Positions 1,499-39,885 of a DNA stretch of 64,000 nucleotides are shown one piece after another; position 1 is the first letter of the stretch; the number at the start of each line of letters is the position of its first letter. Below the pieces are notes generated by a model. It saw nothing but the letters and a program-made list of their open reading frames with translations, was not told where the DNA came from and did no database searches. A program made the position numbers and the translations under genes. Source of the stretch: Gammaproteobacteria bacterium (GTDB taxonomy: Bacteria; Pseudomonadota; Gammaproteobacteria; Eutrophobiales; Eutrophobiaceae); the NCBI GenBank assembly GCA_965215365.1, contig CBDCDS010000003.1:1472001-1536000 (forward strand), in the 5' to 3' direction.

Positions 1499-2032
1499 GT
1501 GGCACTTAAATGGTACGTGGTACAGGCCTATTCCGGCTATGAGCAGAATGTGAGGCGGGCGCTGCTGGAGCGTATTGAGCGCAGCGACCTGAAGGAGCAA
1601 TTTGGCGACATCCTGGTGCCGACCGAGGAAGTCGTGGAGATGCGTGACGGCAAGAAGCGCAAAAGTGATCGTAAATTCTTCCCGGGTTACGTGTTGGTGG
1701 AAATGGAAATGAACGACGCGACCTGGCACCTGGTCAAGGAAGAGCCCCGGGTGCTGGGTTTTATCGGTGGAACGACAGGCCGGCCGGTGCCGATCTCCAG
1801 TGCCGAAGCAGACGCCATCCTGCAACGGGTTGAGGACGGGGTGGACAAACCCAGGCCGAAAGTCCTGTTTGAGCCGGGTGAAGTAGTCCGGGTTAACGAT
1901 GGGCCGTTCACGGATTTTAACGGCGTGGTCGAAGAAGTAAATTATGAAAAGAGTCGATTGCGGGTTTCCGTATTGATATTTGGCCGCTCTACTCCGGTGG
2001 AACTCGAATTCACCCAAGTGGAAAAGGAATAG
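1499..2032 (+). CDS. nusG: Transcription termination/antitermination factor NusG
   Basis: [23 protein letters not shown] domain, [10 protein letters not shown]. Confidence 0.98.
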
Positions 2033-2071
2033 CGGCCGGTATTGCAGCAAGTAACCTGCGGGAGTGAGACA

Positions 2072-2518
2072 ATGGCAAAGAACACCGGTTCAAAGAAAGT
2101 TATCGCCTCGGTTAAGTTTACCGTGCCGGCCGGCAATGCCAGCCCGAGTCCGCCGGTGGGTCCGGCGTTGGGCCAGCACCAGTTGGGTTTGATGGAGTTT
2201 TGCAAGGCCTTCAACGCGCAGACCCAGAATATGGAACCGGGCTTGCCGATACCGGTCGTCGTCAGCGTTTACCCGGACAAGAAATTCTCGTTCATTACCA
2301 AAACACCGCCGGCGGCCTATCTGCTGAAACGGGCTGCCGGCATTGAAAACGGCAGCGGCGTCCCCAACAAGGATAAGGTTGGCAAAGTGACGCGGGCGCA
2401 ACTGGAAGATATTGCAAGGACCAAGGATCCTGATTTGACTGCCATGGACTTGGACGCGGCGGTGCGCACCATTGCCGGCACAGCGAGAAGCATGGGTATT
2501 GAGACGGAGGTGGCCTGA
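2072..2518 (+). CDS. rplK: 50S ribosomal protein L11
   Basis: [27 protein letters not shown]; ATG at 2072 after GGGAG. Confidence 0.97.
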
Positions 2519-2519
2519 C

Positions 2520-3209
2520 ATGGCAAAACTATCGAAGCGCGCACGCGCGTTCAAGGAAAAAGTCAATGCCGGACAGGCATACGCTGCGCTGGATGCCCTG
2601 AACCTGCTCAAGGAGAATGCCAGCACAAAGTTTGACGAGACCGTCGAAGTGGCAGTCAACCTGGGCGTGGACCCGAGAAAATCCGACCAGATGGTGCGCG
2701 GTGCCAGCGTCCTGCCGCAAGGCACCGGCAAGGTTGTCAAGGTGGCCGTGTTCGCACAGGGTGAGCAGGCCGATACCGCCCGGGCCGCCGGCGCTGAATA
2801 TGTGGGCCTGCAGGATCTGGCTGAACAGGTGCAGGCCGGAATGATGGATTTTAACGTCGCCATCGCCGCGCCGGATGCCATGCCGATAGTGGGCAAGCTG
2901 GGCAAGCTGCTGGGTCCCAGGGGGTTAATGCCCAACCCGAAAGTCGGCACTGTAACCAAAGATGTCGGTCAGGCCGTGACCAATGCAAAAGCCGGCCAAG
3001 TGCGGTACCGGACGGACAAGAACGGCATTATCCATTGCGGGATAGGCAAGGCCTCATTTGCTGCAGATGCGCTCAAACAGAATCTGGACACACTGCTGAC
3101 CGATCTGAAAAAAGCGAAACCCGGCGCGGCCAAAGGTATTTACCTGAAAAAAATCAGCCTTTCGACCACTATGGGCTCCAGCGTTGTGGTTGACCAGGCG
3201 AGCCTGTAA
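2520..3209 (+). CDS. rplA: 50S ribosomal protein L1
   Basis: [28 protein letters not shown]. Confidence 0.98.
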
Positions 3210-3225
3210 TCGGGAGACAAGGTTT

Positions 3226-27544: not shown

Positions 27545-29149
27545 ATGAGTCAACAGGTACTATTCAGGGAACAAGGTCAAGAGTTGGTCAACTTGAGGCA
27601 GGCAGCGGACTGGGCTGCCAACTACACTAACCACGATATAACCCCATCCAATATTTCATATCTGGTCCAGTATGGACGCGTAAAAAAGTATGAGGATAAG
27701 GGCGGCACCTTAATTGACAAGGAAGAGCTGAAATGTTATTACGACTCGTTCAATAGGGAACAACAATGGAAGGAGAAACTAGGCGATGACCTGAACTGGC
27801 GCCTGTCTTTTGTGGAATACAGAGAGAAGGAACGAACGAAACATGTTCACCGATTACATCCATATAAAGGGAAATTCATTCCCCAGCTGGTGGAGTATTT
27901 TCTCGACACACACACAGATGAATTCAAGAAGGAGCTTTATTTCCGTAAGGGTGATATCGTCTTAGACCCGTTTTGTGGAAGTGGTACAACTCTGGTACAA
28001 GCAAATGAACTGGGGCTCCATGCCGTTGGCACAGATATATCCCTGTTCAATTGCATGATTTCCAATACCAAAGTTGAACAGCACGATGTTCCTTTGCTCA
28101 GCCGCGCCATTCGCAGTTTGACTTCGAAATTGGAGGGTTTTCAGAAAGACAGCAACAGCCCCAGCTTCGAGCAACATCTCCTGTCGGAATTGGCAAGATT
28201 CAATGCTGAATTTTTTCCGTCACCAGATTATAAGCGCAGGGTTAGCACAAAAGAGATAGATGAGGCCAGCTTTGCCGCCGAAAGGGAAGAGAAATTTTTA
28301 TCCACCTACTATTCACTAACTGATAAATATCAAATCAAAATCAAGCAAGACGAGGGAGGCGCCTTTCTTGATAAATGGCTTTTGTATCCGGTCAGGGAGG
28401 AAGTGAATTTCCTGTTTGAAGAACTGAAAAAGTTTGAAAATACGAAGCTCAAGAAGATACTGGCAGTTATCCTGAGCAGGACTGTTCGTTCTTGCAGAGC
28501 TACAACGCATGCTGACCTTGGCACCTTAAAAGAACCTGTCACCACGACTTACTACTGTAAAAAACACGGGAAAATATGCAAGCCGATTTTCTCCATCGGT
28601 AGTTGGTGGAAAAGGTATTCCATTGATACGTTAAACCGGATCAGCGCATTCAATAAGCTGAGAACAGAGACACATCAATGTTGTTTGCAAGGGGATAGTA
28701 GAAACATTGATATATTCGGAGAGATGGATAAGAAAAATTCCGGTTTTGCGAAAATGCTCAGGCAAAATAAAATCAGCGGAATCTTCTCCAGTCCGCCCTA
28801 TGTGGGTCTTATTGATTACCATGAACAGCACGCATATGCCTATGAGTTGTTCGGATTCGATCGTTCTGATGAACTGGAAATCGGCCCCCTTTACAAAGGG
28901 CAAGGAAAAAAAGCCCGGGATTCTTACGCCAGAGGGATAGCTGAAGTACTAAACAACAGCCGACCCTATCTCCAAAAAGACTATGACATCTTTCTGGTAG
29001 CCAATGATAAGTACAATCTGTATCCGCAGATCGCTGGTTTGGCCGGCATGGAAATTGTCAACCGATTCAAACGTCCGGTACTGAACAGGGTGGAAAAGGA
29101 CCGGTCCAACGCATACTCGGAAATCATTTTTCATTTGAAGGAAAGATAA
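27545..29149 (+). CDS. Amino-DNA methyltransferase (probable N4-cytosine) with N-terminal HTH-like extension
   Basis: HPYKGKFIPQL, LDPFCGSGTT motif I, then SSPPY motif IV. Confidence 0.9.
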   Translation: MSQQVLFREQGQELVNLRQAADWAANYTNHDITPSNISYLVQYGRVKKYEDKGGTLIDKEELKCYYDSFNREQQWKEKLGDDLNWRLSFVEYREKERTKHVHRLHPYKGKFIPQLVEYFLDTHTDEFKKELYFRKGDIVLDPFCGSGTTLVQANELGLHAVGTDISLFNCMISNTKVEQHDVPLLSRAIRSLTSKLEGFQKDSNSPSFEQHLLSELARFNAEFFPSPDYKRRVSTKEIDEASFAAEREEKFLSTYYSLTDKYQIKIKQDEGGAFLDKWLLYPVREEVNFLFEELKKFENTKLKKILAVILSRTVRSCRATTHADLGTLKEPVTTTYYCKKHGKICKPIFSIGSWWKRYSIDTLNRISAFNKLRTETHQCCLQGDSRNIDIFGEMDKKNSGFAKMLRQNKISGIFSSPPYVGLIDYHEQHAYAYELFGFDRSDELEIGPLYKGQGKKARDSYARGIAEVLNNSRPYLQKDYDIFLVANDKYNLYPQIAGLAGMEIVNRFKRPVLNRVEKDRSNAYSEIIFHLKER

Positions 29150-29156
29150 AATACTG

Positions 29157-29279
29157 TTGACAGCAGGCCAACAAAAGATCATCAAGGAAATTATCAGGAA
29201 ATGTCTCAGGGACAAGTTTAAGAATTACGATCCGGAATCGAAACACACGCCTTTCCACTACCGACTGCTTGGTAAAGAC
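29157..29279 (+). pseudogene. 5' stub of a second TdeIII-family endonuclease
   Basis: IRKCLRDKFKNYDPESKHTPFHYRLLGKD parallels the N-terminus of 26489-27271, then runs into antisense of other genes. Confidence 0.75.
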
Positions 29280-29366
29280 TGCCGCGTGACTCACCGCATC
29301 CCGCCACTCCGGTGTCTGCCGTATGCCGTCGGTCAAAAAGTATTGTTTGAACAGCTGGCCGGTCAT
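29280..29366 (-). pseudogene. 5' stub of an Eco57I-like/type IIG RM gene
   Basis: ATG 5 nt after the nth stop: MTGQLFKQYFLTDGIRQTPEWRD, resembling the N-termini of that family; same strand as the 3' remnant. Confidence 0.55.
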
Positions 29367-29371
29367 TTCTA

Positions 29372-30022
29372 TCACTGCTGTTTGTCCCTGAAAAATGCCT
29401 TCTCTCCCCACTCACAAAGCTCAAAAATAATACACTCCCCACACTTGGGTTTGCGTGCGGTGCAGGTATAGCGGCCGTGCAGGATGAGCCAGTGGTGGGC
29501 GTCTTTTTTGTATTCTGCGGGGACCTGTATGAGCAGGCGTTGTTCGACTTCCAGGACGTTTTTTCCAGGCGCCAGACCGGTGCGGTTGGAGACCCGGAAG
29601 ATGTGGGTATCGACCGCGATGGTGGGTTGGCCGAAGGCGGTATTGAGGATGACGTTGGCGGTTTTTCTGCCGACGCCGGGGAGTTTTTCCAGGGCTTCAC
29701 GGTCGGCGGGCACCGCGCCGGCATGGTCGCGCAGCAGCAGGTGGCAGGTCTTGATGATATTTTCCGCCTTGGTGTTGAACAGGCCGATGGACTTGATGTG
29801 CTGCTTCAGCCCGGCCACGCCCTGGTCGATAAATTGCTGCGGCGTATTGGCTGCCCGAAACAGTCCTGCCGTGGCCTTGTTGACGCTGACATCAGTGGCC
29901 TGCGCCGACAGGATGACGGCTACCAGCAACTCGAACGGGTCGGAGTAATGAAGTTCCGTGGTGGGCGCCGGGTTGTGCCGGCGCAACAGCGAGAACATCT
30001 GCGCGCGTTGGGCTTTGTTCAA
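29372..30022 (-). CDS. nth: Endonuclease III
   Basis: LSAQATD, LPGVGRKTA HhH motif, VDTH, CTARKPKCGEC..C. Confidence 0.98.
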   Translation of the reverse strand: MNKAQRAQMFSLLRRHNPAPTTELHYSDPFELLVAVILSAQATDVSVNKATAGLFRAANTPQQFIDQGVAGLKQHIKSIGLFNTKAENIIKTCHLLLRDHAGAVPADREALEKLPGVGRKTANVILNTAFGQPTIAVDTHIFRVSNRTGLAPGKNVLEVEQRLLIQVPAEYKKDAHHWLILHGRYTCTARKPKCGECIIFELCEWGEKAFFRDKQQ

Positions 30023-30684
30023 GCGCCCGTCCTATGCGGCCAGGAAGCCCTGGCCGGTAGGCAATATGACCGCAAGGCCAGCAACAATCCGAACACCATA
30101 AAGGCGCCAGCGCCGGCGCCAAACAGGTGCAAACCGCCATCGAACAGGTGGATGGGTTGCAGGCCGTGCAACCCTTTTACCTGTGCCAGCAGCTGCACAT
30201 CCGTGAGCAGGCCGCCCCGCCCCGCCAGTTCCCGCACCAGGCCCGTTAGTGTCAGCAACACAAACCCGGCCAGGGCCGGGCGCAGGCAAACCGGCAGGCT
30301 GTTGCCGAGGCCCTGTCGTAACGGGGCGCGCTCGAGCTGCAACAGCAAGGTGGTATTCATTGCCAACAGGTACAGGTAGATGCCGAGCTGCTCTCTGAGC
30401 GCATAGCTCCAAGCTTGCAGCAGCAGCTCGATGACTGAGACCCAGGTTGCCGCAATCAGCAATACATATATCAGGCGGTAACGGCCCAGACCGTAACGGC
30501 TTGGTAACATACGCCCGGCGCCAGCTACGGTGAGCGCCGACAGCATCGACGTAGCCAGCAAAGCCAGTCCCATGCACAGGCCGCTGAGCAGGGTCGTGCA
30601 CACTGCCAGCAACGGTGTCAGCCCGACCAGGTTGAGCACGGCCGGCGGCAGAGACTTGCTTACCTCAGGATGCAGGTCACTCAT
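30019..30684 (-). CDS. rnfE: RnfE/RsxE-like membrane protein (divergent)
   Basis: GLTPLLAV, LGIYLYLLAMN, GLVRELAG, GAFMVFGLLLA; rnfE-nth synteny. Confidence 0.75.
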   Translation of the reverse strand: MSDLHPEVSKSLPPAVLNLVGLTPLLAVCTTLLSGLCMGLALLATSMLSALTVAGAGRMLPSRYGLGRYRLIYVLLIAATWVSVIELLLQAWSYALREQLGIYLYLLAMNTTLLLQLERAPLRQGLGNSLPVCLRPALAGFVLLTLTGLVRELAGRGGLLTDVQLLAQVKGLHGLQPIHLFDGGLHLFGAGAGAFMVFGLLLALRSYCLPARASWPHRTGA

Positions 30685-31290
30685 TCATGCGCGCGCAATG
30701 GCGTCCTCAATCTCAGCTTCCAAACTCATCAGGCCGGTCTTGATCAATTCCAGGCGCGCGGCTGCATCGTCTGTCTCCAGCAGTTCCTGTTTTGCATCTT
30801 TCGCAAACGGCAGAAATTCCGCCAGCCGATAACTGAGCAACATCGGACTCACTGCGGCATGATCTTCGTGGTTATACAAGGTCTCATAATTTTCCATCAG
30901 ATGCAGGTATAAGTCTTTGAGCTGACCGTATTCTTCCGGGTAGGTGCCGGATTGTTCGGCAGTGACCCAGACTACCTCTCCGGTGAGCAGGTTATTGTCG
31001 CGCCGCGCGGTTTGCAGCACCTTGAAGCGTTTTTTGCCTTGCACGGTGATGCCCAACAGCCCATCGGCCTGCCGTGAAAAATCAATGATTTCCGCATAAG
31101 TGCCGATATCAAAGCAGGAGGCCGCCGCACTGGTTTCCGAACCCGGCCTGAGCAGGCAGACTCCAAACCCGCTACCGGTTTTCATACACTCGCTGACCAT
31201 ATCAAGGTAACGCGGCTCGAAGATGCGCAACGGCATGCGTCCATGGGGATATAAAACCGTGTTCAGAGGAAACAGGGGAATATTTTGCAT
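30685..31290 (-). CDS. LON peptidase N-terminal (substrate-binding) domain protein
   Basis: IPLFPLNTVLYP..LRIFEPRYLDMV..KQELLE. Confidence 0.9.
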   Translation of the reverse strand: MQNIPLFPLNTVLYPHGRMPLRIFEPRYLDMVSECMKTGSGFGVCLLRPGSETSAAASCFDIGTYAEIIDFSRQADGLLGITVQGKKRFKVLQTARRDNNLLTGEVVWVTAEQSGTYPEEYGQLKDLYLHLMENYETLYNHEDHAAVSPMLLSYRLAEFLPFAKDAKQELLETDDAAARLELIKTGLMSLEAEIEDAIARA

Positions 31291-32660
31291 CAGTCTGACA
31301 GTCTCTCCGGCAGGCGTTGGTAAATTCTATCAAATCCGCCATTACTCATGATCAGAATGTGCGCGCCGGGCTTGCCAATCTGTCGCAGATACTCCACGAT
31401 AGTTGCCACCTCAGGAAACAGGCGCAACCGATCGCCCAGGCTGCGCAGGCTGGCGCGCAAGTCCCAGGTCAGCCCCGGTGGCTCCAGCACACAGACCTGA
31501 TCTGCCTCATGCAGGGCGCCGGCCAGGGTATGTTTATGTATTCCCGCTTTCATGGTGTTGGAGCGCAACTCCAGCACCGCGATAAGAGGCTGGCCGCCGA
31601 TGCGACCCCGCAACGCCTGCAAGGCCGATTTGATGGCAGTCGGATGGTGCGCAAAGTCATCATATACCGAAATGCCGTTCACTGTCGCCAGCAATTGCAA
31701 ACGGCGTTTGACACTGTTGAACCCGGACAGGCTGGCACAGCCCTGCGTTATCGGGATACCGGCCTGCTGCGCGGCCAGCAGGGCGGCCAGGGCGTTGTCG
31801 GCATTATGTTGACCAAACAGAGACCAGCGCACCTTGCCAATTTCCCGGGGGGGCGCTTCCCGGTCGGCGTGAATGACCTGAAATTCGGTATAGTCAGCGG
31901 TGTGCGGTACGGTATGCCAGGCAGCAGACGCATTTCCGAACCGGGTCAGCGGCGACCAGATTCCCATTTCCAGCAGGGTATTGATAGGGGCGTTGCCGTC
32001 GCGGACGATGACCTGCCCGTTGCCCGGCACGGTGCGTAGCAAATGGTGGAACTGCCTTTGAATTTCCTCAATACCGGCAAAGATGTCCGCATGATCGTAT
32101 TCCAGGTTATTTATCACCAGTATATCAGGACGATAGTGGACAAACTTTGAGCGTTTATCGAAAAATGCCGTGTCATATTCGTCGGCTTCAACGACAAAAT
32201 AACCCGGCTCACCCAGGGTCGCGGAATACCCGAAGTTTTCCGGCACCCCGCCGATCAGGAAGCCGGGGTTCAGCCCGGCATCGTGCAACAACCAGGCAAG
32301 GATGCTGGCAGTGGTGGTCTTGCCATGGGTGCCGGCAACAGCCAATACCGTGCGTCCCGGCAATACCTGCTGCGCCAGCCACTGCGGTCCCGAGGTGTAG
32401 GGCAGTTTTTGCGCCAGTACATATTCCACACACGGGTTGCCACGTGCCAGGGCATTGCCGATAATCACCAGATCCGGCTTAGGGTCGAGCCGATCCGGTT
32501 TATAGCCCTGGCGCACTTCTATGCCGGCGCGCGCCAACTCGTCGCTCATGGGAGGATAGACGTTCTGGTCGGTTCCGGTCACCCGGTGTCCCAGTTGTTG
32601 CGCCAGTCGCGCCAGCCCCCCCATAAAGGTGCCGCAGATGCCGAGTAGGTGCAGATTCAA
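31290..32660 (-). CDS. mpl: Murein peptide ligase Mpl
   Basis: HLLGICGTFMGG, GTHGKTTT, EADEYDTAFFDKRSKF, DDFAHHP; TTG start at 32660. Confidence 0.96.
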   Translation of the reverse strand: MNLHLLGICGTFMGGLARLAQQLGHRVTGTDQNVYPPMSDELARAGIEVRQGYKPDRLDPKPDLVIIGNALARGNPCVEYVLAQKLPYTSGPQWLAQQVLPGRTVLAVAGTHGKTTTASILAWLLHDAGLNPGFLIGGVPENFGYSATLGEPGYFVVEADEYDTAFFDKRSKFVHYRPDILVINNLEYDHADIFAGIEEIQRQFHHLLRTVPGNGQVIVRDGNAPINTLLEMGIWSPLTRFGNASAAWHTVPHTADYTEFQVIHADREAPPREIGKVRWSLFGQHNADNALAALLAAQQAGIPITQGCASLSGFNSVKRRLQLLATVNGISVYDDFAHHPTAIKSALQALRGRIGGQPLIAVLELRSNTMKAGIHKHTLAGALHEADQVCVLEPPGLTWDLRASLRSLGDRLRLFPEVATIVEYLRQIGKPGAHILIMSNGGFDRIYQRLPERLSD

Positions 32661-32682
32661 TTGAAATTCCGTGAAAATTCTA

Positions 32683-32710
32683 TTGACACGATCCGATAAC
32701 TTCGTATAAT
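32683..32710 (+). promoter_or_regulatory. Consensus sigma-70 promoter
   Basis: TTGACA-N16-TATAAT with both hexamers perfect. Confidence 0.75.
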
Positions 32711-32755
32711 ACAGGCTGTTTGTTCCGATACAACCATAAGCAAAAAGAGATTTGA

Positions 32756-32950
32756 ATGAGCAACACTGCCCTGTACAAAGCATTGACCGAAGCGGGCGCG
32801 TCGAAAGAAAGCGCTGGCGCTGCCGCCGAGACCCTGAGCGAACGTCTGCACAAGATTGAAATAACTGTTGCTGAGCTGAAAATTACCACCCGGGTGACGT
32901 TGGGTCTGGTTTGCGCCTTGCTTGTGCTGATGTTAAAATCCACACTTTAG
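32756..32950 (+). CDS. Small coiled-coil protein with C-terminal membrane anchor (DUF1640-like)
   Basis: LYKALTEAGA..AAAE, heptad-like middle, hydrophobic tail; downstream of a consensus promoter. Confidence 0.6.
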   Translation: MSNTALYKALTEAGASKESAGAAAETLSERLHKIEITVAELKITTRVTLGLVCALLVLMLKSTL

Positions 32951-33055
32951 AGCAGTCCTCTTATTGTTTCATTTCCTCGCTCCGGCAAGGGGTCAAAGCG
33001 CCGTTGCACTGCGCCTGCTCCCGTTTGAGCATGTTCACAAGATGGGGAGAACGAC

Positions 33056-33532
33056 ATGCAGATAGATATTGGCATTTCCGAAGAAAACCGGCAGCAGATA
33101 GCCGCAGGTTTATCTAGGTTGCTCGCCGACAGTTACACTTTGTACCTCAAGACCCATAATTTTCACTGGAACGTAACCGGCCCGATGTTCACTACCCTGC
33201 ACACCCTATTTGAGCAGCATTATACCGAGCTGGCGACGGCGGTGGATGAGATTGCAGAACGTATTCGGGCGCTGGGCGTGGCGGCGCCCGGGTCTTACCG
33301 ACAATTCAGTGAACTGTCTTCCATCCCCGAGGAAACCGGCGTACCCGGCGCCGAGGAGATGATCCGACAACTGGCGCAGGGCCAGGAAGCCGTGGTCAAA
33401 ACCGCCAGGGGCATTTTCCCCGTCGTGGAAAGCGCCAACGACGAAGCCTCTGCGGACCTGTTGACCCAGCGCATGCAAATCCATGAAAAAAACGCCTGGA
33501 TGCTGCGCAGTCTGCTCGATGAGCGTGGTTAG
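33056..33532 (+). CDS. dps: Dps ferritin-like DNA protection protein
   Basis: HNFHWNVTGPMF..LH..DEIAERI, HEKNAWML. Confidence 0.96.
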   Translation: MQIDIGISEENRQQIAAGLSRLLADSYTLYLKTHNFHWNVTGPMFTTLHTLFEQHYTELATAVDEIAERIRALGVAAPGSYRQFSELSSIPEETGVPGAEEMIRQLAQGQEAVVKTARGIFPVVESANDEASADLLTQRMQIHEKNAWMLRSLLDERG

Positions 33533-33564
33533 CCCACAGCGCTTCACCTGGTGAGATATGTGGG
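33533..33564. repeat. Collapsed MITE derivative (two joined terminal repeats)
   Basis: TTAG-CCCACAGCGCTTCACC-TGGTGAGATATGTGGG-TCAG. Confidence 0.7.
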
Positions 33565-33923
33565 TCAGACTGCTACTGTTGATTTCCCTGTTGCTCTTCG
33601 GCGCCGCAGGGTGTGCAAAAGCGCCGGTAAGAAATACCTTCAACCAGGAAGAAATGGCACTGCTGGCCGAGACTAATCTGGCCTTCACCAGCTGCCTGCA
33701 GGAAGCTGCCCCGGAACAGCTCGAATCCAGCCCGGATGTACGCGTAGTGGCTGCAAATACGGTCGAAGTCTGCAACCCCATCCTGGACGAATTAAAAACC
33801 ACGCTGGAGCAAAACGGGGTCAACCCGGCTTTCTTCATGCACGCAGTCACCCGCATAAAAAACCGCGCCATCCGCCGCCTGCTGCCGCTGCTGATGATGG
33901 AGAAATCGAACCAAACGCCTTGA
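33558..33923 (+). CDS. Hypothetical lipoprotein
   Basis: Hydrophobic signal peptide ending AAGC (lipobox). Confidence 0.7.
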   Translation: MWVRLLLLISLLLFGAAGCAKAPVRNTFNQEEMALLAETNLAFTSCLQEAAPEQLESSPDVRVVAANTVEVCNPILDELKTTLEQNGVNPAFFMHAVTRIKNRAIRRLLPLLMMEKSNQTP

Positions 33924-34193
33924 CTGGCACCTTTATATTCAGGTAACCTCTAAAAATACCCTCCGTGGTATTTTTTGATGCGTCTCATCCTTGGGACGCC
34001 CCCTGCGGGCATCGAAGTGGATGTCCAAATCTGTTCCAAACAGATTGGTGAGACGGAAATGAAAAAGTATGATTTTTCATTTCCTTCATTTTCAAGCACT
34101 GACGTGCTTGCAGTGACTGGCAGCACATCCCTGTGCTGCACGGTCACCTCGTGTTTGTGAGAGGTGCCCTTCAGATATTGGCAGGAATTGTTC

Positions 34194-34433
34194 ATGTTAG
34201 TTACCGTAAAAAAATGGGGTAATAGCGCTGCAATACGCTTGCCGGCTGAGGTGCTGAATGCCGCGCAGGTTAGTCTGGAGCAGCGTGTCAGTGTACATGT
34301 GGAAGGTCGTAGAATTGTGCTCGACCCCTCCGAGGATGAAAATAGTCTTGATATGCTGCTTGCACAAATTACCCCCGATAACATTCACGGCGAAGTATCT
34401 TTTGGCTCCCCGACAGGCAAAGAATTACTTTAA
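34194..34433 (+). CDS. mazE: MazE/AbrB-family antitoxin
   Basis: VKKWGNSAAIRLP, LLAQITPDNIHGEVSFG..GKE. Confidence 0.9.
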   Translation: MLVTVKKWGNSAAIRLPAEVLNAAQVSLEQRVSVHVEGRRIVLDPSEDENSLDMLLAQITPDNIHGEVSFGSPTGKELL

Positions 34434-34684
34434 TGTCGTCAACCTATGTTCCCGACACAGGTGATATTATCTGGCTGGATTTCGACCCGTCAGCAGGACA
34501 TGAGCAGGCAGGACACCGGCTTGCTCTGGTTTTATCCCCGAAACTCTACAACAGCAAAACCGGACTGTTAATTTGTGTTCCTCTTACCAGTCAGATAAAG
34601 GGTTTTCCCTTTGAGGTTGGGCTTCAACAACGAACGCGAAGCAGACTACCTGGGCATTATCTGGGCTGTAGAAGCCGGTTATGA
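34433..34684 (+). pseudogene. mazF: MazF toxin, truncated after about 63 codons
   Basis: YVPDTGDIIWLDFDPSAGHEQAGHR..PLTSQIKGFPFEV, then unrelated sequence; the DQ-containing C-terminal half is missing. Confidence 0.8.
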
Positions 34685-34826
34685 TCCGCAGGGCGCTATC
34701 AGGCTACGCGACAACCCAATGAGAAAGAAAAGCGCTTGCAGAGGATACTGCATCTCTCATCCCCTCTCTGTCGAACGAATTATGAAGTCAAAGGCGCTGG
34801 CACGTCGCTTGTCACGCGATAACTAG
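34620..34826 (+). pseudogene. 3' remnant of an M48-family peptidase
   Basis: EREADYLG..AGYDPQGA..SHP..ERI; the HExxH region is absent. Confidence 0.65.
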
Positions 34827-34932
34827 CTCTCACCTCCTGCTAAATCTAAATGCTTATGCAGGGCACTGCGCGCCCTGACGGCATGTAACTGAAAAGTTTC
34901 AGGGTGGTAATTTTTCATTGTTATCGGTCCAT

Positions 34933-36651
34933 TCATTGGTGGAAGTCAGAAATAAGACCATCCATCTCCAGGAATAATGGCGCACCGGTAAATGAGAGCG
35001 GAGAGATTGGCCCGTAGAACATGAATGGGAATTTTTTGTTGCTTGAGGGGTCGATAAATGAGCGGTAGAACTTTGCGCCGGTATCATCGTTAATAGTATC
35101 CCTGATTTTGTTAAACTCGGAACCGCTGGTCAGGCCGTAGCCGAAAGCAAATATTCTGATTTGTCGCCTTATCTCCTCGTGTAAGGAATCGATGGTTTGG
35201 GTGATAAACATGTAGCCTATGCCGTATTTACGCGTCGTACGGACGGCATCAATGATGCTGGTGGTCAACTCCTTGATTTCCTGATCGTAGTTGTAGGTAC
35301 TGATAAAGCGATGTGCTTCGTCCATTACCACCAGACAATTTGCTTGTTCACCATTCGCATATAATTCTGCTCCTTTCTCTTTGATGGCATCTTCGATGAT
35401 TTTGATGAAAAGCGTTTGAATAGATTCCATCCCGCTTATGGCATGTCTGCCTGATATATTGAGCACTACCACATTCCCTGAGGCACGGACTACGTTTTCG
35501 ATAACATTCTCTAATCCAGTTTTGCCAGACTGAGAAAAAAGTTTGCATACATACATCCATATTTTTTGTGCCTCGTAATCTACGGAATTACTCACCATAT
35601 TCTCAATCCGCTTCTTTAAATTGTTGAGGTGCTGACCGCTTGAATAGACACTTGCAATGTATTTATCATCCTCGCCAAATCGCGTGATCATTGATTTAAG
35701 GAGAGAGTTGCTATCTTCATTTCCAATCGAAAAATTTGGATTATTCATCCTCCCCATAATGTAATCCTGTATCGCCTCTGCCATCAGTTCTCTTTTTTCC
35801 TGACTGTGAATCCTGAAGGCCTTTCTGACGAATCCGTAGTTCAGCAGTAGCATGCTGAATAATCTTGCGTCATTGGGTAACGCAACATCATCTGGTACTT
35901 TTAACTTCTTGTATTGCATTCCTGTTTTTGTGATCTCTTCTTCAAACTTGACTTGCCCCGGCAACACATTATTGTCCTCATAAAACTGCTCCTGCGGGTC
36001 AAGTATCAGGATACTCATTTTGTCGCTGTGTTGTGCGTAACCCAGAATCATGTTGGCGGCGGTGGTTGTTTTCCCGGACCCGGTTCGCCCAAAAACGCCG
36101 ATGTGGTAAGCATCTCCTCCTCCGCCTTCATCGGGCTTGCCGAAGTGTTTGAACCAGAATGGGACATTCACATTTGTGTCATAGGCTTTTCCGAGACAGA
36201 CAAGTTGTCCTTGGTATTGTTTCATTAATTCCTGCATAACTTCGTTAGTGATCCCCTTTACCGGCACACCGGTTGACGGAGAGTTTGCCAGTTTGTGGGC
36301 TTCGGATTTGTCGCTGGTCAAAATGAAGCTGGATTGAACATTAATCTTGGCAATACGGTTGTCGGCAACGCCGCTCAGATTTGGCAGCTTTCCATGCCGC
36401 TTGATGATCCCCTTGAATGAGGGTTCCTCATGCCATCTGTTTTTGGTCTCTATCTCGGTAATTTGCCCCAGGACAAGCACTGTGTTCTCGCCCTCTTTTA
36501 CATGAAAGCAAACCAATTCTCCAAGCAGCTTGCTCGTTTCATTTACCTCTTTAATATCAACGATAGCTTCAAAGGAACTGCTTGGGGAACCGACTACGCC
36601 GAGCGCCTGATCGTCAGAATCTAAAAGTTCAATAATATTCGTACTGGTCAT
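34933..36651 (-). CDS. HerA-family ATPase
   Basis: N-terminal HAS-barrel-like GVVGSPSS, Walker A GRTGSGKT, Walker B VVMDEAHRF, RTTRKYG arginine finger, ITQ. Confidence 0.9.
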   Translation of the reverse strand: MTSTNIIELLDSDDQALGVVGSPSSSFEAIVDIKEVNETSKLLGELVCFHVKEGENTVLVLGQITEIETKNRWHEEPSFKGIIKRHGKLPNLSGVADNRIAKINVQSSFILTSDKSEAHKLANSPSTGVPVKGITNEVMQELMKQYQGQLVCLGKAYDTNVNVPFWFKHFGKPDEGGGGDAYHIGVFGRTGSGKTTTAANMILGYAQHSDKMSILILDPQEQFYEDNNVLPGQVKFEEEITKTGMQYKKLKVPDDVALPNDARLFSMLLLNYGFVRKAFRIHSQEKRELMAEAIQDYIMGRMNNPNFSIGNEDSNSLLKSMITRFGEDDKYIASVYSSGQHLNNLKKRIENMVSNSVDYEAQKIWMYVCKLFSQSGKTGLENVIENVVRASGNVVVLNISGRHAISGMESIQTLFIKIIEDAIKEKGAELYANGEQANCLVVMDEAHRFISTYNYDQEIKELTTSIIDAVRTTRKYGIGYMFITQTIDSLHEEIRRQIRIFAFGYGLTSGSEFNKIRDTINDDTGAKFYRSFIDPSSNKKFPFMFYGPISPLSFTGAPLFLEMDGLISDFHQ

Positions 36652-36662
36652 GTTGCTAAAAA

Positions 36663-37853
36663 CTAATTAGTGCGGTAAGGAAAAATGAGTTCAAAATGTT
36701 TTTGTTGATTGAGCATAGGGTCATTACTGATAGCCTGATTCACAGCTTCCATTCCAAAAGAAATGTTTTTGGCTATCACATCTGCAAGGTATTGTGGATA
36801 TGGCTCTCTGATTTCCGGAGAAATAATCTGGCGTCGCAGGCTGCGAAAATATTTTTCCAGCCTTTGTGTATCCTCAGCAAGGTCTTTTTTGATTTCAAAC
36901 CTGAAAGCAGAAGAAAATGAATTCGGTTTGTAGTAGCAGAAATACAACTCTGATTTATGGCTATCTGTAATCTTGAACGGAGCAATGGCCTGGCCCAGAA
37001 GCGGGTTTAATTCGGTTTCGTTATCCACGCCATCAATTTCAAGATTACAAGCGATGTGTATTTGCTTCCACATAGCCTTGTCTTTTTCACTTTGCCCCAC
37101 AGAGAGGGGCTTGGTGTACTCGTCTTCATTCAAGATCATGGACATAAACACCTTGTCGTCCGCCTTGATGTCTAATTCATGCAAAACAGTATCAATAATT
37201 TCCCGGGAAGAAGAATACTTGGTAAGCCCGATAACAGCATCATCCGCAAAGGCATTGCTGATAATATCGGGAATATCAGGGATCACTTTTCTATAATTTT
37301 CATGCAAAAAATCGGAAAGAGATTGAACGTATGGTTGATCGGCCGCATCCCGATCATTGGCGCTTAACAGACTGTTGAGTTTAAGGATGGTCGTCAAATG
37401 AGAGCCATCCATGATCCTTATCTCCCGATCAGTCTCAGCAAGAATACTGAGCTCCATCAAAAACATGATCCCTTGTGACAGCCTGGTATTAGCAACATGG
37501 TGTGGCAGCACAGCCTGCCACTGCTGATACTGTCTCGCATCTGCTGGCCACGCGCTGGATTCCTGGTTGGAAAGACCATCGACACCCACAGCGAGCGCCA
37601 GTAGTATATCCGCGCTGGTTTTGTGCTCTATGATATTGGCGCCATCCGCCGCCATGATTGACGAGGTATATTCTCCTTCAGGACAGGTACGTATAATCGC
37701 TTGCTCATGCAGGGTTGCCCTGGCCCTATCTGCCTGCTCGGTATTTAATTGGACGGTTGCTGCCAGTTGTTTCGCCGTTTCCGGCGTTTTCTCCAGCATC
37801 TGCAGTAAAAGATCTTCCGGGAGGTAAGCATAGTCCTTATGCTGTTCAGTCAT
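36663..37853 (-). CDS. NurA-family nuclease
   Basis: IMAADGA and IMDGS acidic motifs, C-terminal PYPQYLAD..AK; directly upstream of HerA. Confidence 0.8.
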   Translation of the reverse strand: MTEQHKDYAYLPEDLLLQMLEKTPETAKQLAATVQLNTEQADRARATLHEQAIIRTCPEGEYTSSIMAADGANIIEHKTSADILLALAVGVDGLSNQESSAWPADARQYQQWQAVLPHHVANTRLSQGIMFLMELSILAETDREIRIMDGSHLTTILKLNSLLSANDRDAADQPYVQSLSDFLHENYRKVIPDIPDIISNAFADDAVIGLTKYSSSREIIDTVLHELDIKADDKVFMSMILNEDEYTKPLSVGQSEKDKAMWKQIHIACNLEIDGVDNETELNPLLGQAIAPFKITDSHKSELYFCYYKPNSFSSAFRFEIKKDLAEDTQRLEKYFRSLRRQIISPEIREPYPQYLADVIAKNISFGMEAVNQAISNDPMLNQQKHFELIFPYRTN

Positions 37854-39022
37854 GCCGGGAGGCCCACTACCAGGTTTTTACTACGTATCAGGTCCTCTTT
37901 TATGTCATGGAGGAATTGTTCTTTTGAAAACATGAGTTTTTCTTTCGCACAATCGCCAGACCGCTTTATCGCCCAGCGTTCTTGCCAATATTCAGTCAGA
38001 CCTTCTATAGTGCGCTTTTCCCACTGTGGCGCTTGACTTTGGTGAATAACAGCCTTGATATTTTGGGCCAGAGGGAACAGGTAAACGGCTCGTTTGATCC
38101 CGTGTCCCACGCCATTTTTGAAACCTAAATCACCCATCGCACGGTCGATAATTTTCATTTTAACCGACGGGCCATTACCAAAAGATCTACCCGCTTCAAT
38201 ATTATTCCTCCTGAGATAGTCAACAAATCCCTCGTATAAACTATTTGGAATATGAAATGAACCGCTCCCATGTGTGTAGCCGATAAAATCACAAACTCTC
38301 CTACCGTTAAACCGCAGCCGGTTATAGACACTGCTTTTGCCGTAAGCACCCGTGGTTGTAACAAAAAGCAGGTCGGCAGGTATGTTTCTCTTCTTCAACA
38401 GGGTTTTATAGTCTTTATATTTTTCATGAAATTCTGTCCGTATTTCGTCACACGTCAAGAGCAGAGCAACCAGTTTCCCGCCCAAAAACCTGTTGTAGGG
38501 GGGCAAGGCGCCAAGACGCTGAGCATTCATGGACTGGTTTATCCAGTAATCCCGCATATTTTTGGTAATGCCAAGATAATTGTCCCTGACACTCCAACTT
38601 AGAATCGGACTCTGTAATCCTATGAGGCCAACAGGAGCATTGTGGCAATCATCCCAGACAATAAAACGCATTTGCCGGCCATACGCCCTTTCATAAGGCA
38701 GGCTCCACCAGGTGAAATTCCACCAACGGAATAATTTTTCGTGTTCCGACCCGGATTGCACTGCAATCAGGCGAGGCCTGATTTTTGCTACGTCCAACTC
38801 TGCACTGTCCAGCATGAATTGTCTGGCTTTGGGGGTGAAGGATTCAATGAAATTAACATGTTCAGCAACTCGCTCCGCCCTGGAGATTGAATGAATATTT
38901 CTTATATCCGGCTTGTCATGTTCAGAGATATGGAAGGTACCGTCTCTGATTATGAATCCCTGTGAACGAAGTGCTTCGATGACTTCGTTTTTGAGCGTTG
39001 TTTCGGCTGGCGATAGATTCAT
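37850..39022 (-). CDS. DruA-like (DUF4338) protein
   Basis: WSLPY..GRQMRFIVWD..GLIGL..RDNYLG, LGALPPYNRFLGGKLVALL, TTTGAYGKSSVYNRL, IGYTHGSG; alternative TTG start at 39034. Confidence 0.82.
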   Translation of the reverse strand: MNLSPAETTLKNEVIEALRSQGFIIRDGTFHISEHDKPDIRNIHSISRAERVAEHVNFIESFTPKARQFMLDSAELDVAKIRPRLIAVQSGSEHEKLFRWWNFTWWSLPYERAYGRQMRFIVWDDCHNAPVGLIGLQSPILSWSVRDNYLGITKNMRDYWINQSMNAQRLGALPPYNRFLGGKLVALLLTCDEIRTEFHEKYKDYKTLLKKRNIPADLLFVTTTGAYGKSSVYNRLRFNGRRVCDFIGYTHGSGSFHIPNSLYEGFVDYLRRNNIEAGRSFGNGPSVKMKIIDRAMGDLGFKNGVGHGIKRAVYLFPLAQNIKAVIHQSQAPQWEKRTIEGLTEYWQERWAIKRSGDCAKEKLMFSKEQFLHDIKEDLIRSKNLVVGLPA

Positions 39023-39034
39023 TGAATTCGGCAA

Positions 39035-39553
39035 TTATAAACCTGCTGCAAAAGGATGCACTTTCATCAACGGCTTGAGTTCCTCCAGCGCGCGCCGGTA
39101 CACGTCTCGTTTGAAAAACACGACGTTTCTGGCCGGTTCGGAAAAGTCTGCCCAGCGCCAGTGGTCGAATTCCGGACGACGGCTTGACGACAGGTTGACG
39201 GCGCTTTCATCGCCGGTGAGTCTCAGCAGGTACCAGCGCTGCTTCTGGCCGATGCACAGGGGTTTGAGGTGGCGTCGGATGTATCGTTGCGGCAACTTGT
39301 AGCGCAGCCAGTTGCGGGTGGCGCCGACTATCTCGACATGCTCCGGCAACAGGCCGACTTCTTCGTGCAACTCCCGGTACATGGCTGCTTCCACGGACTC
39401 TTCCGGTCTGATACCACCTTGCGGAAACTGCCAGGCATCCGTGCCGACACGTTTTGCCCAGAATACCTGATGCTCATTATTAAACAGCACTATCCCCACA
39501 TTGGCGCGGAAGCCGTCTGCATCAATAATTTGTGAATCCCGTCTAACCCGCAT
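39035..39553 (-). CDS. rppH: RNA pyrophosphohydrolase
   Basis: [31 protein letters not shown] Nudix box, [19 protein letters not shown]. Confidence 0.96.
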
Positions 39554-39785
39554 ATCTCACCAAGTCGCTTGTTGCCTTATGAAACATTTCTGCTATCAAT
39601 AAGTTATGATAATACTGCTATTCTTTCCACCTGACACACCACGCTTGATGCGCCCTCGCTGGTCCTGGTTCTGCCTGCGGGCACGTGCTTGTTCAACCAT
39701 AGCTACCGCTATGGTTTCGGGCGCAGGCACCCGCAGGCAGAACCAATCCGGCGCGATCTTCGCATCACTTGGTGAGATATGCGGG
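39547..39785. mobile_element. 239-bp MITE copy 3
   Basis: Perfect 19-bp inverted termini CCCGCATATCTCACCAAGT; flanks CTAA / TTAG. Confidence 0.9.
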
Positions 39786-39885
39786 TTAGGCATTGTGTCA
39801 TACTGCTTGTGGAAAGCTGAACTTTTAACACAGATTGCATGACGCAACAAGTTACGGCCACCTCTGAAAATCAGCGGTGGACTGG

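Follow-up and report, generated by a model that had tools for sequence, protein, structure and literature searches.

A mobile DruA-NurA-HerA gene trio in a gammaproteobacterial genome as a candidate defence module

What is the function of three tightly packed, AT-rich genes that directly follow the core gene rppH in a gammaproteobacterial genome? The genes lie in a DNA stretch of 64,000 nucleotides (nt) on contig CBDCDS010000003.1, and the window in this text means that whole stretch. They code for a DruA-like protein, a NurA-like nuclease and a HerA-like ATPase, and are called the trio here. Machines based on HerA and on NurA have been described for DNA repair, for a small number of defence systems and for a single element of DNA donation. 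Druantia type I has DruA as its signature gene, the role of which is not stated in the literature searched. The results described here indicate that the trio is conserved as a unit, that it is accessory and moving, and that it is found in the company of restriction genes. We presume, with moderate confidence, that the trio is a mobile module whose most likely role is protection of the cell from incoming phage or plasmid DNA that is linear or has been cleaved. The trio fills positions 39034..34933 of the window on the minus strand, and its genes are as follows.

37850..39022, minus strand: druA-like gene (DUF4338), 390 residues from the ATG at 39022; the longest open reading frame starts from the TTG at 39034
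36663..37853, minus strand: nurA-like gene, RNase H-fold nuclease, 396 residues
34933..36651, minus strand: herA-like gene, HerA/FtsK-type ATPase, 572 residues

The three open reading frames (ORFs) are intact and co-oriented, in the order druA, nurA and herA. The druA stop codon and the nurA start codon overlap as ATGA, and the gap between nurA and herA is 11 nt. The start codon of druA is probably the ATG at 39022, which is located 12 nt past the TAA of rppH and agrees with a database copy of 390 residues. The GC content is 0.40-0.51 across the trio (500-nt bins, 35000 to 38999), whereas it is 0.55-0.65 in the core flanks. The original prediction, made from the letters of the window, had described three intact, co-oriented and AT-richer genes with these two junctions, a block bounded by rppH and a broken mazEF, and intact acidic residues of NurA and Walker A/B motifs and arginines of HerA. 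All of these statements agree with the coordinates, the base composition, the family alignments and the profile matches of the present analysis.

DruA matches the Pfam family PF14236 with an E value of 6.1e-70, and the PADLOC model DruA1 (PDLC00002) with an E value of 1.8e-94 over profile positions 9-388 of 407. The AlphaFold2 model of DruA has a predicted local distance difference test (pLDDT) score of 85.8, and is composed of a GNAT core (approximately residues 84-331) with N- and C-terminal helical parts. According to VIA-align, all 50 entries shown for the model are GNAT-type acyltransferase folds, with Z scores of 8.0-9.6 over approximately residues 81-340. The top match is Mom of phage Mu (8bv8_B; Z 9.6, root-mean-square deviation 3.6, 166 aligned residues). 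Foldseek gave weak matches, mostly to proteins of the GNAT fold (NAT10, SpeG, GCN5 and malonyl-CoA decarboxylase), and the Protein Atlas gave a weak lead to PF22559, GNAT-phage-like, with a score of 0.83. No relative was found in the search of the DruA profile against the PDB sequences (the best match, with an E value of 1.1, is unrelated). In the available text of one survey, the Aravind group has independently called DUF4338 a GNAT (PMC10853773). The GNAT fold of the modelled core can thus be regarded as secure, and "Mom-like" as a lead from the model. The original prediction had considered a GNAT or Mom-like fold; the GNAT part is borne out by the 50 VIA-align entries, and the Mom part is reduced to a tied lead that the sequences do not support.

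In the alignment of 37 DruA sequences from many phyla, 94 columns do not vary at all, and the identity per column averages 63%. An invariant stretch, Q172 R173 G175 ... P178 P179 Y180 N181 ... G186 K187 L188, is located on a strand-helix element (strand 168-176, helix 180-192), presumably at the place where GNAT motif A would sit. DruA is unlike a fast-evolving sensor, because it is highly conserved across phyla. Two further classes of DUF4338 proteins were observed. Proteins of approximately 300 residues, another class than the trio DruA, are present in the genomes of families f53, f56 and f60 (for example G175, G230 and G268). They often occur several per genome and near contig ends in fragmented assemblies, a pattern typical of repeated or mobile elements. 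Proteins of 700-1300 residues that contain a DUF4338 domain are present in a Hymenobacter plasmid (L099, 6161-9319) and in the genomes G084, G042, G154 and G174. The Hymenobacter protein adjoins a very large DUF3883 protein, and such fusion partners might hint at the function of DruA.

NurA matches PF09376 weakly, with an E value of 8e-7, but above the cut-off (29.2 bits, cut-off 21), and 38 of the 39 aligned family members match the same model. The AlphaFold2 model of NurA (pLDDT 87.5) is most similar to NurA structures by Foldseek: 2ygk_A (E value 6e-11, TM 0.53/0.64), followed by 9x1m_G and 3taz_A. The next matches are TdpB in the TdpAB complex (8wfd_G, 9.2e-6), then endonuclease V and Deinococcus NurA. 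The NurA profile detected no NurA among the PDB sequences at E values up to 1. The invariant acidic residues in the family alignment are D70, D82, E134, D149 and D358. HerA matches DUF87 (E value 1.6e-9) and the PADLOC model mad8 (6.6e-14), and HerA models match as well. Its best PDB sequence matches by phmmer are 8wiv, a HerA central-domain protein (4.9e-5), and TdpA (8wet, 2.3e-4). The Walker A motif (G188..K194), the Walker B residues D444-E445 and the arginines R471/R474 are invariant. Two loci, L063 and L074, were left out of the HerA alignment because of internal stops, one in each, which may be decay or sequencing error. An apparent fused HerA in L019 was rejected, as its apparent stop came from an over-extended reading frame.

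Is the trio a unit in other genomes? The protein search with DruA gave 2086 relatives. The best 120 of them were examined, and they are 52-81% identical to the query apart from the window's own copy. The named sources among these 120 include Patescibacteria, Omnitrophota, Thermodesulfovibrionales and Eubacteriaceae. Through DruA, 82 related loci were collected (2 from genomes and 80 from metagenomes) and searched by tblastn with the three proteins. Of these loci, 73 have flanks of sufficient length, and NurA adjoins DruA in 68 of the 73. Among the five misses, L008, L068 and L075 are at contig ends, and L077 contains HerA and has lost NurA at the contig end. L062 (1669-5443) is the real exception. 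Its solo DruA, 51% identical, is present without NurA and HerA on a contig with a GC content of 0.58, and the genes after it code for a proline-rich protein and a DnaB-like helicase. This solo DruA may be an orphan that a phage or a plasmid carries.

The complete trio was found in 62 loci, and 52 non-redundant loci remained for the flank tallies after near-duplicates (>90% nucleotide identity) were dropped. The intergenic gaps are mostly -4 to +20 nt, as in an operon. More distant relatives keep the three genes together. In four loci with a DruA of 39-44% identity the order is NurA-HerA-DruA. The divergent trio of genome G356 (DruA/NurA/HerA 32/19/28% identical) keeps the standard order, and so do the trios of two IMG/VR contigs with a DruA approximately 32-33% identical. 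Among 1.84 billion representatives, the trio-type NurA family accounts for 675 representative clusters at E values up to 1e-3 and for 208 at E values up to 1e-30; the public names of the homologues are "DNA double-strand break repair nuclease NurA" or "hypothetical". A lack of linkage between the DruA-like gene and nurA-herA elsewhere had been named at the outset as a reason to abandon the idea of a module. The 68 linked loci, together with the divergent trios, indicate the opposite.

DruA and its two partners do not vary together. The DruA of L040 is 70% identical to those of L064 and L024, and the corresponding identities are 22-23% for NurA and 31-34% for HerA. Between L029 and L058 the DruA/NurA/HerA identities are 71/28/34%. 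NurA and HerA always co-vary as a pair, and DruA recombines freely between pair types. As DruA has been recombined with different NurA-HerA pairs and is present also in Druantia, it appears to be a portable module for different translocase-nuclease engines. Distant solo homologues of DruA are present in Pelagibacter and Synechococcus phages and on the replicon-like contig L062. The Phold preprint, in the part available, likewise notes solo homologues in phages.

The window was compared with its relatives at the rppH site. The insertion and the neighbouring genes are listed below.

33925..39016, no strand assigned: insertion relative to the closest congener (G006), 5.1 kb, consisting of an unassigned stretch, mazE, the truncated mazF, a 248-nt spacer between mazF and the trio, and the trio
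39035..39553, minus strand: rppH (RNA pyrophosphohydrolase), core gene directly upstream of and co-oriented with druA; NCBIfam NF001937, 250 bits, cut-off 139
34164-34433, plus strand: mazE; mazEF (mazE and mazF) spans 34164..34684
34433-34684, plus strand: mazF, 3'-truncated, 83 residues, covering only positions 1-70 of the 111-position profile

In G006, which belongs to the same genus and is approximately 90-92% identical, the regions corresponding to 29271-33924 and 39017-39543 of the window are matched by blastn at 90-91% identity and are only 8 nt apart. In another congener, G005, the rppH site contains an intact mazEF, a DUF6998 gene and a weak DUF4145 match, without the trio (L092, G005:C1:2969500-2981500, approximately 1583-3224). 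The homology of the window mazF to this intact mazEF ends at 34629. The trio copy of G005 is located at another place, where it directly follows icd-aceK-apbE and precedes an IS21 element. The two trios are 82-87% identical at the nucleotide level, and the homology stops at the first and last codons. According to a search with the NurA profile, the trio is present in 1 of 22 other genomes of the same genus and in 0 of 18 further relatives. These comparisons and the patchy presence indicate a variable hotspot downstream of rppH, and they mark the trio as a cassette that is accessory and moves. Between rppH and druA no terminator-like site was found, and transcription reading through from rppH into druA is therefore plausible.

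In G356 the trio is located directly behind TniA-TniB-TniQ, overlapping and co-oriented, and is therefore cargo of a Tn5053/Tn7-type transposon. Divergent complete trios are present on the IMG/VR contigs L100 and L101 (42 kb and 30 kb), which are classified as viral; they may be cargo of prophages or islands that were misclassified. No close relative of DruA was found on viral contigs by a pattern-based scan, which detects close relatives only. Many trio homologues are on contigs of 4.3-5 kb, and a small circular replicon or an insertion sequence was considered on this account. This candidate was rejected: terminal overlap was found in 0 of 40 contigs shorter than 7 kb (39 fetched contigs and L001, which was cut from the window's own genome), and there is no recombinase inside the unit. 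The small contig sizes are better explained by assembly breaks at a presence/absence island.

In which company does the trio move? Pfam families were counted in the ORFs within 5 kb of the trio. Among the 122 upstream ORFs, the counts are 8 for N6_Mtase, 7 for Eco57I, 6 each for N6_N4_Mtase and ResIII, 5 each for resolvase and MmeI_Mtase, 4 for TaqI_C, and 3 each for HSDR_N and Methylase_S. Among the 105 downstream ORFs, N6_N4_Mtase is the commonest family (5), resolvase follows with 4, and the methylases are labelled type II MTases by PADLOC. Taken together, the tallies are headed by DNA methylases, restriction domains and serine recombinases. Among the non-redundant loci, 36 have the standard order and 1 kb or more of upstream sequence, and in 19 of them a co-oriented gene ends at most 250 nt before druA. 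This close upstream gene is a restriction or restriction-modification (RM) gene in 13 of the 19 loci, and at least five types are represented. The genes, typed individually or by blastp to a typed one, are listed below.

Type I: HsdR in L013 and L074, HsdS in L058
Type IIG, Eco57I/MmeI-like: L015, L028 and L039
Type ISP: L060 and L073
ResIII helicase, with or without an endonuclease domain: L048, L017 and L069
GmrSD-HNH: L031
Dam-like methylase: L063
The remaining six of the 19: ApbE in L003, thioredoxin-like in L006, NOV_C in L037, no family in L034, and L007 and L009, which are not annotated

In the close relative L002, the trio is located between a ResIII/methylase pair and another methylase. 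The flanks are the signature of a defence-island gene set. As the upstream restriction types are so varied, the arrangement suggests generic cooperation with restriction rather than one fixed composite system. The defence-like and mobile context that had been expected for the block is therefore observed, in the restriction genes upstream, in the methylases and recombinases of the flanks and in the TniA-TniB-TniQ genes of G356. The original prediction had mentioned neither this operon-like link to restriction genes nor two relatives discussed below, TdpABC and the Thermus ICEth1 operon.

Does the trio correspond to a described system? In PADLOC-DB v2.0.0, NurA had 0 matches, although the PDC candidate models were included, and the trio fits no complete system. 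NCBIfam contains no model for DruA or NurA. In the literature searched, no paper contained both "DruA" and "NurA", and none described the trio in the text examined; the supplements of PMC10853773 and PMC12839542 could list it. NurA is not mentioned in the main text, as far as available, of these two HerA/FtsK surveys of the Aravind group. The earlier statement that no complete known system is present can be maintained on this basis, and the same is true of the absence of druB-E. The statement on mre11 and rad50 stands in part: neither is among the genes flanking the trio, and no genome-wide search for them was made.

The trio shares with Druantia type I (DruABCDE) a full-length DruA, and the canonical DruA proteins borne on plasmids are 34-36% identical over residues 5-359. 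In the canonical type I loci on plasmids, DruA is followed by three to four other genes and a giant DEAD/DEAH helicase. In contrast, no DruB, DruC or DruD is found beside the trio DruA, and NurA and HerA follow instead. The MZB/DUF1998 domain (PF09369), the hallmark of DruE, had 0 matches in the window's own genome, which is 97.6% complete; the control was positive in 8 of 14 genomes. In a quick maximum-likelihood tree with midpoint root, four Druantia type I DruA proteins split from 44 of the trio type, with support values of 99 and 98 in the Shimodaira-Hasegawa-like approximate likelihood ratio test (SH-aLRT). The split is not clean, as the long-branch trio DruA of G356 (L094) falls on the Druantia side.

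TdpABC, the phosphorothioate-based system of thermophiles, would be the nearest functional analogue of the trio, judging from its composition. According to the available text of PMC12914056, it consists of a modification gene with HerA-like and NurA-like proteins. Both systems would combine one modification-type enzyme with a translocase resembling HerA (TdpA in TdpABC) and a nuclease resembling NurA (TdpB). TdpB ranks below the archaeal NurA structures in Foldseek, and TdpA is the second-best PDB sequence match of HerA. The third gene differs, because it codes here for a GNAT-fold DruA, and no phosphorothioation genes were seen. TdpC is reportedly another kind of enzyme, which acts through an adenylated DNA intermediate.

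The available descriptions of SIR2-HerA, DUF4297-HerA and the HerA/FtsK capture systems likewise place a HerA-family ATPase with an effector in defence islands. In the trio genes, SIR2, DUF4297, PglZ, BrxC-like and TGT gave no Pfam or PADLOC match, and the partner of HerA is NurA. The NCBIfam model HerA_antiphage_2 gave 19 bits on the trio HerA, against a cut-off of 850. BRC capture systems recruit a GNAT proposed to modify DNA, together with TGT; the available text of this survey does not state whether it is a DUF4338 protein (PMC12839542). Mom of phage Mu, annotated as a DNA modification protein, resembles DruA in the GNAT fold, and 166 of 202 residues are aligned in its match with the DruA core. 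It differs in that the sequence profiles show no similarity, and DruA has additional N- and C-terminal parts and approximately twice the length. Taken together, the trio appears to be an uncatalogued candidate for a HerA-NurA-based, probably modification-linked defence system.

How could such a module work? HerA, as a hexameric translocase of double-stranded DNA, and NurA, as a dimeric RNase H-fold nuclease, would form the engine. HerA would load on a free DNA end and feed the duplex into the NurA dimer, where it would be degraded processively. This end-dependent degradation is presumed by analogy with the solved archaeal, Deinococcus and TdpAB complexes. Phage genomes injected in linear form may provide the free ends, or else restriction cuts, and the latter would explain the position of the trio behind restriction genes. 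The trio also occurs without an adjacent restriction gene, as in the window copy. DruA would be the licensing component, a GNAT-fold, Mom-like and acyl-CoA-dependent transferase which acts in trans on a common substrate. A trans-acting acyltransferase is suggested because DruA is conserved like an enzyme and not like a sensor, and because it is indifferent to the accompanying NurA-HerA pair. The preferred substrate would be host DNA, so that self DNA is spared. A role as DNA marker is suggested because the best structural neighbour, Mom, is the one GNAT known to modify DNA, and because distant solo homologues are present in phages and in L062, as is the case with orphan modification enzymes. 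This DNA-marking version of the defence reading is put forward tentatively and with low confidence. It may be extended to Druantia: DruA would write a new acyl mark on host DNA, neither methyl nor phosphorothioate, and HerA-NurA and DruBCDE would be alternative readers which destroy unmarked DNA from its ends. We consider this extension doubtful.

Several observations weigh against the defence reading and its DNA mark. To our knowledge, no bacterial DNA acylation mark of this kind has been found apart from that of phage Mom. DruA has no obvious sequence-specificity domain. Mom is tied with ordinary protein and small-molecule GNATs, as the differences in Z are under 1, and the hhalign probability between the DruA and Mom sequence profiles is 0.3%. 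Many trios are located behind complete RM systems with their own methylase, and a second self-mark is not obviously needed there. The window copy, in turn, has no adjacent RM gene. Two of the 51 full-length HerA copies examined (L063, 10355-12163, and L074, 10354-12138) are interrupted by an internal stop. Moreover, Thermus thermophilus ICEth1 has an operon which joins a type IIG enzyme to NurA, a HerA-like protein and a methylase, and this operon functions in DNA donation and not in defence, according to the available part of PMC5365140.

Other explanations of the trio are less probable. Within a defence module, DruA may instead be a sensor, a gate or a second effector. Its substrate, acetylated once foreign ends are engaged, would then be a protein, an aminoacyl-tRNA or HerA-NurA itself. 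The fold is common to protein and small-molecule acetyltransferases at the Z score of Mom, the three genes are tightly coupled in translation, and SIR2-HerA and DUF4297-HerA, as described in the accessible literature, pair HerA with an effector enzyme. Furthermore, DndF has N-terminal domains that vary, and according to the available text of PMC10853773 a DUF4338 GNAT is one of them, along with HEPN, nuclease and kinase domains. However, a nuclease effector is already included in the trio. DruA also shows much stronger conservation than NurA and HerA and is exchanged between dissimilar NurA-HerA pairs. This speaks against a protein-protein interface tailored to the partners and against a sensor that evolves fast, and we regard such a role as unlikely. 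The trio may also be a module for DNA donation, as in ICEth1: a neighbouring restriction enzyme and NurA would cut and trim chromosomal DNA, the HerA-like ATPase would export it, and the element would spread in a transjugation-like manner. The ICEth1 operon consists of Tth111II (type IIG), a NurA-like protein, TdtA and an N4/N6 methylase, and all four genes are required for efficient transjugation, as reported in the accessible part of the article (PMC5365140). As in the trio, a NurA-like and then a HerA-like gene are located on a low-GC mobile element, there behind a type IIG enzyme. Type IIG genes directly upstream of the trio in L015, L028 and L039 match this layout in part and strikingly, N6_N4 methylases are the commonest downstream family, and serine recombinases and transposition genes are nearby. 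Nevertheless, ICEth1 has no DruA, its demonstrated function is DNA donation, and it has its own integrase and att repeats, according to the same partial source, which were not seen around the window copy. In the window insertion no RM gene, methylase or integrase was found, and no conjugation gene adjoins the trio. The upstream restriction types are many and unrelated, including the modification-dependent GmrSD, and a defence island fits them better. DNA donation is thus considered improbable.

The trio could, finally, serve housekeeping repair of double-strand breaks, with end resection by HerA-NurA as in archaea and Deinococcus, and with DruA as an accessory regulator. The NurA fold and the HerA motifs are intact, and the database name of the NurA homologues points in this direction. 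The archaeal and the Deinococcus/Thermus HerA-NurA systems have both folds in adjacent genes, in the order NurA then HerA, and provide the best-matching structures (2ygk, 9x1m and 3taz). Their sequences, however, are very distant, and the trio is accessory and mobile, not lineage-conserved: the closest congener lacks the insertion, as do 21 of the 22 other congeners searched, and the spread is wide and patchy, with 50-60% identity across phyla. The low GC content, the RM and transposon contexts and the flanks without mre11 and rad50 also argue against a repair function, and we give it very little weight. Protection against incoming DNA with free ends is therefore the reading that we retain.

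If this protective role is correct, the placement behind unrelated restriction systems suggests a "cut, then shred" cooperation, in which restriction enzymes work with an end-dependent exonuclease independent of RecBCD. DruA forms with NurA-HerA a second compact and widespread system besides Druantia, and the three genes offer a model for testing the role of DruA. If the acyl mark is true, the trio would be a minimal acyl-based RM system, and the role of DruA in Druantia would be explained. Work on the trio could show how DruA functions and whether an acyl mark on DNA is in use among bacteria.

Two other features of the window were observed. Positions 39543-39790, between rppH and mdh, contain a dispersed repeat of approximately 245 nt, which looks like a miniature inverted-repeat transposable element (MITE) or a repetitive extragenic palindromic (REP) element. 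A query of the rppH-mdh region gave 53 matches in G003, 32 in G004, 35 in G005 and 18 in G006, most of them to this repeat, with 73-93% identity. A second low-GC stretch (0.43-0.49) is located at 28000-29500, with an ORF of 534 residues at 27545-29149, and may be another insertion.

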